DNA from: Promethearchaeota archaeon
Lineage (GTDB): Archaea; Asgardarchaeota; Lokiarchaeia; Sigyniarchaeales; SOKP01
Direction of reading: 5' to 3'
Assembly: GCA_019058445.1 (NCBI GenBank)
Contig: JAHPZA010000007.1
Span: 20,129-84,128 of the forward strand
Length of the DNA stretch: 64,000 nucleotides
Under the pieces are notes generated by a model. That model worked only from the letters and a program-made list of their open reading frames with translations. It was not told the origin of the DNA and did not search any database. Positions 14,193 through 57,886 of this stretch are shown here, in pieces. A program made the position numbers and the translations under genes. The stretch's first letter is position 1; the number at the start of each line of letters is the position of its first letter.

Positions 14193-14352
14193 GCAGGGAT
14201 AACCAAGCCTGGTCAACGGTGCCGGACTCTATTGAGATTTATTCTCATAAGCTGGACTCAAGATCTTTAAAAATTAATTTCCGTTGATATACCAACTCTG
14301 ATGAGATATCCGGTCTCATAGGAGTACGTGGGTTCGAATCCCACTCCCTGCA
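14193..14352 (+). tRNA. tRNA-Leu(CAA), two introns (14228-14257 at 32/33; 14263-14307 at 37/38)
   Basis: GCAGGGA/TCCCTGC acceptor stem, long variable arm, GTTCGAAT; two BHB motifs give the mature arm CCGGA-CTCAAGA-TCCGG. Confidence 0.85.
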
Positions 14353-14358
14353 TCTAAT

Positions 14359-14476
14359 GCGGGAATTGCCAAGTCTGGTTAATGGTGTTTTCGAGCTTTT
14401 TCGAAAGCCGACTTGAGGCGCTGGACTTAGAATCCAGTCTTGTAGAAGTTCGGGGGTTCAAATCCCTCTTCCCGCA
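14359..14476 (+). tRNA. tRNA-Leu(TAG) with D-loop intron (~14383-14415)
   Basis: GCGGGAA/TTCCCGC acceptor, CTGGA-CTTAGAA-TCCAG; hairpin insert before the 3' D-strand. Confidence 0.9.
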
Positions 14477-14648: not shown

Positions 14649-14753
14649 GCTCTCGTAGTGTAGCTCGGCCAAAGTCTCCTTGATTCCAAAGGTGACAGCG
14701 AGGCATGCTAGGCTTTCACCCTGGTGACCCGGGTTCAAATCCCGGCGAGAGCA
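14649..14753 (+). tRNA. tRNA-Glu(TTC) with D-loop intron (~14673-14702)
   Basis: GCTCTCG/CGAGAGC acceptor, CTAGG-CTTTCAC-CCTGG, CCGGG-TTCAAAT-CCCGG. Confidence 0.9.
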
Positions 14754-14789: not shown

Positions 14790-14956
14790 GCCTCCGTAGC
14801 TCAGTTAGGTAGAGCACTGAGTATTAATCATGCTCAGCCCGCCCAAAGCACCCGGCTTTCATAATTGATTACCAGTATGACCGGAAGTTAACCGGGCGGT
14901 CGCATGTTCGATCCATTAGTGATTCGAATTCCGATTCGCTGGATAAGCCGGGGGCG
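14790..14956 (+). tRNA. tRNA-Asn(GTT) with three introns (~14813-14846 D-arm; 14858-14886 at 33/34; 14917-14946 at 63/64)
   Basis: GCCTCCG/CGGGGGC-G acceptor; removing the inserts restores CCCGG-CTGTTAA-CCGGG and GCATG-TTCGATC-CATGC. Confidence 0.85.
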
Positions 14957-15128
14957 TACTTTATTCCCTATTGCTTTTTATTTTAAAAATTTGATCTTTC
15001 CTGCACGACCATCATTTTTTCTTTATATATTTTCAAAATATTCAACAATAAATTTTCTACTTAAAAATAGCATAATAACCATTTCAATCGTAAATTTAGA
15101 GATTAATTCGATATTAATAGGTGATTCA

Positions 15129-15467
15129 ATGGAAGGAGGAAAGAAAGGATATATAGTACTCTGGATATTCATGGGAATAATTTTATTTATAACTATACTT
15201 TATCCCATTTTTGGCATAAATTTAAAATATCAGATTGGAACTGCTATAAGCACAACGCTTATAAAATTAGGAAGCATTTTGATTATGGTAGGGACTATAA
15301 TCCTTATTTTAGGCTTTATTATGTTATTTATCTCTGGGACAGGTTCAGGAGCGTTAAAACCAATGTTAATCGGGTTCTTTTTAATAGTTCTGGGAGTAAT
15401 ACTTATTGATCCGATGGGTACAAGCTATTTCACTCAAGGCAGAGAGGCCCCGAAAGGATATCATTAA
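15129..15467 (+). CDS. small membrane protein with VirB2/CedA-like hairpin (true start ATG 15129)
   Basis: GGTGAT Shine-Dalgarno before MEGGKK; three hydrophobic segments; the longer ORF overlaps tRNA-Asn. Confidence 0.75.
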   Translation: MEGGKKGYIVLWIFMGIILFITILYPIFGINLKYQIGTAISTTLIKLGSILIMVGTIILILGFIMLFISGTGSGALKPMLIGFFLIVLGVILIDPMGTSYFTQGREAPKGYH

Positions 15468-57362: not shown

Positions 57363-57794
57363 GTGAGTACCATTCAAGAAAAAAAGAACGATGAAGCAAA
57401 AATAATGGCTGGGCTTCTAAGGGCTGGTCATACCATGCTAAATTTGGCTTGTCCCTTATGTAATAATCCTCTTTTTCGAAATAAGGAGAATGATATCTTT
57501 TGTCCAATATGTAATAAAAAAGTTATCATTAAAAAAGAAGATTCATTAGTTAATGAAGGAGAAAATTCAATTAAATCAGAAGATAGAGGTCAAAATTCAA
57601 AAAACATAGATAAACAACGATATTATAATCCTAATACGTTAATCAGAATCATTGAAAATAAAATAAATATGATAACTCAAAAATTAGAACATGAAACTCA
57701 AATGGATATAATTGAAAGATACATAAAGGTTTTGACAAAACTTTTTGATCTTTTAAAAAAATTAAATAATTGTAATGCTTCTGCCGGGATTTGA
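57363..57794 (+). CDS. UPF0148 / Sjogren autoantigen-1 family zinc-ribbon protein
   Basis: MA.LLRAGHTML..ACP.C..PLF...CP.C. Confidence 0.85.
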   Translation: MSTIQEKKNDEAKIMAGLLRAGHTMLNLACPLCNNPLFRNKENDIFCPICNKKVIIKKEDSLVNEGENSIKSEDRGQNSKNIDKQRYYNPNTLIRIIENKINMITQKLEHETQMDIIERYIKVLTKLFDLLKKLNNCNASAGI

Positions 57795-57886
57795 ACCCGG
57801 GTCGCGAGGGTGAGAGCCTCGCATGCGTGGTCCTTTACATCATCTTTAAAAAATTGAAAAGTTTGACCGAACTACACTACAGAAGC
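57776..57886 (-). tRNA. tRNA-Glu(CTC) with 36-nt D-loop intron (57827-57862)
   Basis: GCTTCTG/CAGAAGC acceptor, CGAGG-CTCTCAC-CCTCG; BHB with GGTC/GACC helix. Confidence 0.92.

Follow-up and report, generated by a model that had tools for sequence, protein, structure and literature searches.

A tRNA-Asn gene with three introns, one of them in the T-stem at position 63/64, in a Lokiarchaeia-type Asgard archaeal genome

The 64,000-nucleotide stretch of DNA analysed here (the window), from a Promethearchaeota (Lokiarchaeia-type) genome, carries on its forward strand, at positions 14790-14956, a tRNA-Asn(GUU) gene that is interrupted by three introns. We are confident that this three-intron gene is real, and it is very probably functional as a working gene of a Lokiarchaeia-type Asgard archaeon. 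The introns lie at tRNA positions 22/23, 33/34 and 63/64 (Table 1), the last of these within the T-stem, and both the coordinates and the splice motifs given in a preliminary description of the sequence were confirmed. Without splicing-aware analysis the genome appears to possess no tRNA-Asn at all, and the gene thus fills a gap in the annotation. With it the intron-rich pattern of Asgard tRNA genes reaches a Lokiarchaeia family, and a T-stem site is added for which we found no report.

Table 1 Exons and introns of the tRNA-Asn gene, together with other tRNA genes of the window
Feature	Coordinates	Strand	Description
tRNA-Leu(CAA)	14193-14352	+	Two anticodon-arm inserts; boundaries approximate
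tRNA-Leu(TAG)	14359-14476	+	D-arm insert of ~33 nt; boundaries approximate
tRNA-Glu(TTC)	14649-14753	+	D-arm insert of ~31 nt; boundaries approximate; 36 nt upstream of tRNA-Asn
tRNA-Asn exon 1	14790-14812	+	tRNA positions 1-22 with 17a; 5' acceptor strand, 5' D-stem, D-loop; same as in intron-free orthologue L015
tRNA-Asn intron 1	14813-14846	+	22/23, D-stem; 34 nt; relaxed BHB; placed by register scan over 29 relatives
tRNA-Asn exon 2	14847-14857	+	Positions 23-33; 11 nt
tRNA-Asn intron 2	14858-14886	+	33/34, immediately 5' of the anticodon; 29 nt; HBh', 4/4 helix
tRNA-Asn exon 3	14887-14916	+	Positions 34-63; 30 nt; anticodon GTT at 14887-14889, variable loop, 5' T-stem, T-loop, nucleotides 1-3 of the 3' T-stem
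tRNA-Asn intron 3	14917-14946	+	63/64, 3' strand of the T-stem; 30 nt; HBh', 4/4 helix ATCC/GGAT
tRNA-Asn exon 4	14947-14956	+	Positions 64-73, comprising the last part of the T-stem, the 3' acceptor strand and discriminator G73; no encoded CCA
tRNA-Glu(CTC)	57776-57886	-	36-nt intron near 21/22; central helix 4/4

Excision of all three introns yields a 74-nt cloverleaf with every stem paired, which ARAGORN identifies as tRNA-Asn(gtt). When the eight possible combinations of removal were tried, tRNA-Asn was obtained from the triple excision only, as the preliminary description had maintained, and partial removals were called as Ile, Lys or Leu or gave no call. The unspliced gene received no call from ARAGORN and no match to the Rfam tRNA model, in line with the earlier expectation that standard tools would miss it. 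The accompanying suggestion, that an apparent TTC anticodon would lead to a mis-call, held in part: before splicing, U33 is indeed followed by TTC, but no tool called a tRNA-Glu. A blind splice search over the tRNA loci of the genome arrived at the identical three sites, and intron 3 was matched without differences by a contig from a public DNA run. None of the sequencing runs listed as containing the sequence was an RNA run, which says nothing for or against expression. Several other readings of the locus were set aside. A YrlA match to the unspliced sequence fell far under the gathering score and reflects tRNA-like arms; a split or permuted tRNA is ruled out, with the four exons colinear on one strand within 167 nt; and the overlap with an open reading frame at 14904-15467, which begins inside the tRNA-Asn gene, was disregarded, its true start probably being a later ATG near 15129. 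Matches in a scan for sigma-70 promoters and terminators, a method unsuited to archaea, were at chance level.

At 33/34 the central helix, CCGG/CCGG, is paired at 4/4 positions, with bulges CT↓T and AA↓G (arrows mark the predicted cuts) and an intron helix of 5/5, and at 63/64 the corresponding elements are ATCC/GGAT (4/4), AT↓T and AA↓G, again with an intron helix of 5/5. Scores as high as these were reached at frequencies of 1e-4 and 2e-4, respectively, in 20,000 dinucleotide shuffles for each motif, and 41 of the 43 introns found at 33/34 in relatives have a 4/4 central helix. With a 4-bp central helix, two 3-nt bulges and a predicted cut after the second base of each bulge, the introns belong to the BHB type, the one at 22/23 falling into its relaxed class. 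The helices and bulges at 33/34 and 63/64 are as first described, but the term 'clean BHB' applied to them was too generous: read from the sequence, both motifs are of the HBh' type, in which an exonic outer helix is almost or entirely lacking. Because the three motifs overlap no junction of one another, nothing in this gene points to an obligatory order of excision.

For comparison, 91 distinct tRNA-Asn genes were drawn from the same Lokiarchaeia family, so that the counts given below concern kin and are not independent. All but four of them (L015, L016, L151 and L185) are interrupted. The spliced product of the window gene is reproduced exactly by the intron-free L185, with one base of difference by L015 (genome G018) and in similar form by L016 (genome G013), and these matches therefore identify the three stretches as insertions independently of any motif.

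The intron at 63/64 is a trait of the tRNA-Asn of this Lokiarchaeia family and no one-off; the preliminary description had not known the site as a common one. Among 77 distinct genes gathered without reference to 63/64, from which one artefact had been removed, about 33 carry an intron there (21 alone, 12 together with an intron at 59/60). The 19 distinct single 63/64 introns of relatives all retain at least three of the four helix pairs, as against 9.9% of shuffles, and have a mean intron helix of 4.5/5, as against 2.1 in shuffles, despite their divergent sequence. In most of them A58 is mismatched with A or G; the window gene has the fully paired form, differing just at that position from an otherwise identical intron in G007. 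A near-identical 63/64 intron is present in L023 and L137. In addition, two assemblies each hold two tRNA-Asn alleles with different intron sets (L003 and L023 in G007; L012 and L025 in G022), and the window gene unites introns that are found separately in the two G007 alleles.

The host assembly measures 4.6 Mb, with a completeness of 92.6% and several tRNA types missing; its tRNA pattern is shared with Promethearchaeota / Lokiarchaeota assemblies, to which the nearest named homologues of its EndA gene also belong. A check for another tRNA-Asn, as the preliminary description had proposed, found none in this 92.6%-complete assembly by BLAST, pattern, nhmmer or anticodon-hairpin search. At least one intron has to be removed from 34 of the 37 tRNA loci analysed, and two or more from 15, making about 51 introns in all; these counts are approximate, about five genes having been parsed wrongly and one apparently intron-free Lys locus left out. 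With most of its genes interrupted, many of them several times and mostly at non-canonical sites, the genome has the heavily interrupted tRNA repertoire described for Asgard archaea. T-arm introns are frequent genome-wide, mainly at 59/60 and 53/54, with 63/64 used in tRNA-Asn only. The tRNA-Asn gene is the last in a cluster of four (Leu-CAA, Leu-TAG, Glu-TTC, Asn), all of them interrupted, and ARAGORN run without its intron option made no call for the other three. Outside the window, at G000:C7:14172-14339, a Met-type tRNA combines an anticodon-arm intron with an unusually long insert of ~66 nt at 59/60, which might itself be compound.

These data bear on whether the gene is a pseudogene or degraded copy, the working tRNA-Asn lying in an unassembled part of the genome. 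The incompleteness of the assembly, from which the EndA alpha region is missing, and the two tRNA-Asn copies present in a few relatives' assemblies (G007 and G022) would allow for this, but its exons are intact and equal to those of intron-free orthologues, the intron-poor G013 has a similar Leu-Glu-Asn tRNA cluster, the interrupted copy is the sole one found in most relatives (87/91 genes being interrupted) and the motifs show compensatory change, so that we regard a pseudogene as extremely improbable. A different concern is that the introns are real without being present in one molecule, the assembly having joined two strain alleles within the 30-nt exon 3. Introns 1 and 2 are indeed nearly identical to those of the G007 allele L003, and intron 3 to that of allele L023, and no contig from the public run spans the whole gene, although this gap is in itself no evidence either way. 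Such a mosaic is nevertheless very unlikely: exon 3 is much shorter than a read, the layout of introns at 22/23, 33/34 and 63/64 arises independently in G006 (L007), the three sites occur together in 14 distinct genes (extra or nested introns being allowed), and natural recombination or gene conversion between alleles would give the same pattern.

The remaining question concerns intron 1. The preliminary description had recognised the 34-nt D-arm insert and left its boundaries open, and its introns 2 and 3 could stand as described while the cleavage of this insert follows a different register, takes two steps or is inefficient, given an A-C mismatch in its helix and a competing 8-bp hairpin. 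Within the window gene the 22/23 motif taken alone is weak, with a helix (AGGT/GCCC) paired at 3/4 positions, equalled by 4.7% of shuffles (P=0.047), bulges AG↓A and AA↓A, the 8-bp internal hairpin and an interrupted intron helix; the predicted minimum-energy fold favours the mature D-stem plus the intron hairpin in this region; and a 5-nt direct repeat allows six registers that give the same product. The boundary is placed at 22/23 because this is the best register across 29 relatives, being the sole one with at least three of four helix pairs in 29/29 genes, whereas no other register reaches three pairs in more than 15 of the 29. Furthermore, among 26 distinct 22/23 introns the helix is paired at 4/4 positions in 13 and at 3/4 in 13, compensated ACCT and ACCC versions being included. 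We thus consider a different or defective processing of the D-arm insert decidedly unlikely and retain excision at 22/23. A nested intron within the 34-nt insert was rejected by eye, the best inner helix reaching 2/4.

A single EndA gene was recovered from the assembly. The Tyr and His that are catalytic in the M. jannaschii enzyme are absent from its product, which is, judging by these residues, a structural, beta-type subunit. A search of the host assembly revealed neither the gene for the catalytic EndA alpha subunit nor those that usually lie next to it, and their joint absence suggests an assembly gap. A second, catalytic EndA paralogue is present in all five relatives tested; in G003, G005, G006 and G024 the two paralogues include an alpha subunit with catalytic Tyr/His/Lys and a KPR loop, which an alignment of the G006 protein with the Aeropyrum EndA shows to be that of the latter enzyme. 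This KPR loop has been tied to the cleavage of relaxed motifs (PMC12397907), and an (alpha-beta)2 EndA with an L1 loop is known in Asgard archaea (PMC5829648). A gene for RtcB is present in the host genome.

We therefore envisage the following course of processing. To judge from their spacing, tRNA-Asn is probably co-transcribed with the intron-bearing tRNA-Glu upstream. The unspliced precursor would be unable to form a cloverleaf; each intron would pair with the four upstream exon bases to which it is complementary in sequence, forming a bulge-helix-bulge-type motif. On the basis of gene content and established biochemistry, a broad-specificity (alpha-beta)2 EndA with a CSL/L1 loop would cut each bulge after its second base and the RtcB ligase would join the exons, resulting in a normal tRNA to which CCA would then be added. 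The 63/64 site is probably retained by selection for splicing, and repeatedly gained, lost or moved within the family.

Asgard tRNA genes with multiple introns and with introns in the D- and T-arms are an already published class, to which the window gene belongs, and the preliminary remark that multi-intron tRNAs are best known from Thermoproteales is in this respect outdated (PMC11291895; bioRxiv 10.64898/2026.10.13.758758, in its available portion). In three complete Asgard genomes 92-95% of tRNA genes have introns, and over half have several (PMC11291895). The available portion of a 2026 preprint reports, from a census covering 90 Asgard genomes, as many as five introns in a gene, many of them in the D- and T-arms, states that these are often missed by tRNAscan-SE, and notes that none of the newly found introns has been demonstrated as spliced (bioRxiv 10.64898/2026.10.13.758758). 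The Atabeyarchaeia/Freyarchaeia genomes (PMC11291895) and the preprint census have in common with our gene the phylum, several non-canonical BHB introns per gene, D- and T-arm sites, a tendency to be missed by annotators and, judging by the host's relatives, a two-subunit EndA. To the extent of the text available, this published work centres on Jordi-, Freyr- and Atabeyarchaeia, whereas the gene described here comes from a Lokiarchaeia family, and neither Loki- nor Promethearchaeota are named in the preprint's main text as available. From the table in PMC11291895 we computed that no tRNAscan-called intron leaves a last exon of 10 or 13 nt, as an intron at 63/64 would; the last exons of tRNA-Asn in that table are 14-17 nt, consistent with 59/60.

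Further afield, the available portions of the work on Thermoproteales (Pyrobaculum, Thermofilum) report as many as three introns per tRNA, of BHB, HBh' or hBH type, the removal of nested motifs in order and a proposal of intron transposition (PMC4090602, PMC4033280, PMC3978253). As far as those portions go, shared features are multi-intron tRNAs and the 22/23 site, as well as 53/54, 56/57 and 59/60 and, judging by the host's relatives, an (alpha-beta)2 EndA with CSL; the lineage is different, and in the Lokiarchaeia family related introns occupy neighbouring sites of one gene. Position 63/64 is absent from the Thermoproteales positions named in the available text, a list that ends in 'etc.'. 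The pre-tRNA-Pro(GGG) of ARMAN-2 also has T-arm introns, two of which lie close together (53/54 and 59/60) around a micro-exon (PMC3239211), but it goes with an Epsilon2-type endonuclease and a 6-nt spacing in the T-loop, as against 59/60 and 63/64 with a 4-nt exon in the relatives studied here. No mention of 63/64 as a tRNA intron site was found in the available portions of these sources, which do not extend to full position lists, so that its novelty is unproven. Possibly new are the 63/64 site, the 4-nt micro-exons, the intron-in-intron forms and the kinship of introns that lie 4 nt apart.

The wider value of the gene lies in the series of alleles of which it is a part. Twelve genes (L010, L013, L147, L149, L165, L178, L181, L207, L210, L212, L214 and L222) have introns at 59/60 and 63/64 around a 4-nt exon, and in 12/12 the 63/64 helix fits the last two bases of the upstream intron better than it fits the spliced exon, which would mean that 63/64 is cut first in these genes. 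Three helix types (TCCC/GAGA, TTCC/GGAA and AACC/GGTT) occur at 63/64 in the double-intron genes; they co-vary with the tail of the upstream intron and therefore represent compensatory change at 63/64. In eight genes (L004, L005, L006, L163, L166, L167, L200 and L203, three of which belong to the same genus) the 63/64 site is occupied by an insert of 60 nt, which parses as an intron within an intron, the inner one situated one base ahead of the outer 3' splice site. The inner helix is paired at 4/4 positions, and the outer one at 0/4 before and 3/4 after removal of the inner intron, which on this pairing would have to leave first. Double and nested alleles provide natural substrates for tests of splice order with an Asgard EndA.

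Introns at neighbouring sites also resemble one another. A loop motif is shared by introns at 63/64 (27/30) and 59/60 (31/49), as compared with 6/43 and 0/26 at other sites. Comparisons of 63/64 with 59/60 introns score above shuffles, as do those of 18/19 with 22/23 and, weakly, of 33/34 with 37/38, and the commonest helix strands are one base apart (CGAA vs GGAA). In the D-arm of relatives (for example L204 compared with L019) introns at 18/19 and 22/23 have a core in common; the 18/19 intron of L204 opens by repeating exon bases 19-22, then continues like the start of a 22/23-type intron, and looks as if it had been shifted by 4 nt through a short duplication. This kinship of introns 4 nt apart, for which hairpin composition and shared ancestry were partly controlled, provides a lead that would fit relocation within the gene. 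We suggest tentatively, as a possibility about which we remain more doubtful than convinced, that 63/64 is an unrecorded site and that the tRNA-Asn alleles show introns moving or being copied by 4 nt (59/60 to or from 63/64; 22/23 to or from 18/19), with about one base change in a helix strand being needed. If true, this would yield 4-nt micro-exons with a forced splice order, as well as introns inserted inside the 63/64 intron. The preprint, in its available portion, leaves the origin of Asgard tRNA introns open and sees little copying between different tRNAs (bioRxiv 10.64898/2026.10.13.758758). The sequence that introns 4 nt apart have in common within one gene offers a testable idea, relocation inside that gene. 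Finally, at locus L224 (G020:C199) the 5' part of tRNA-Asn occurs as two identical, mutually inverted copies of 101 bp (457-557 and 1035-1135), running into a tRNA-Leu gene, which is most likely a misassembly.
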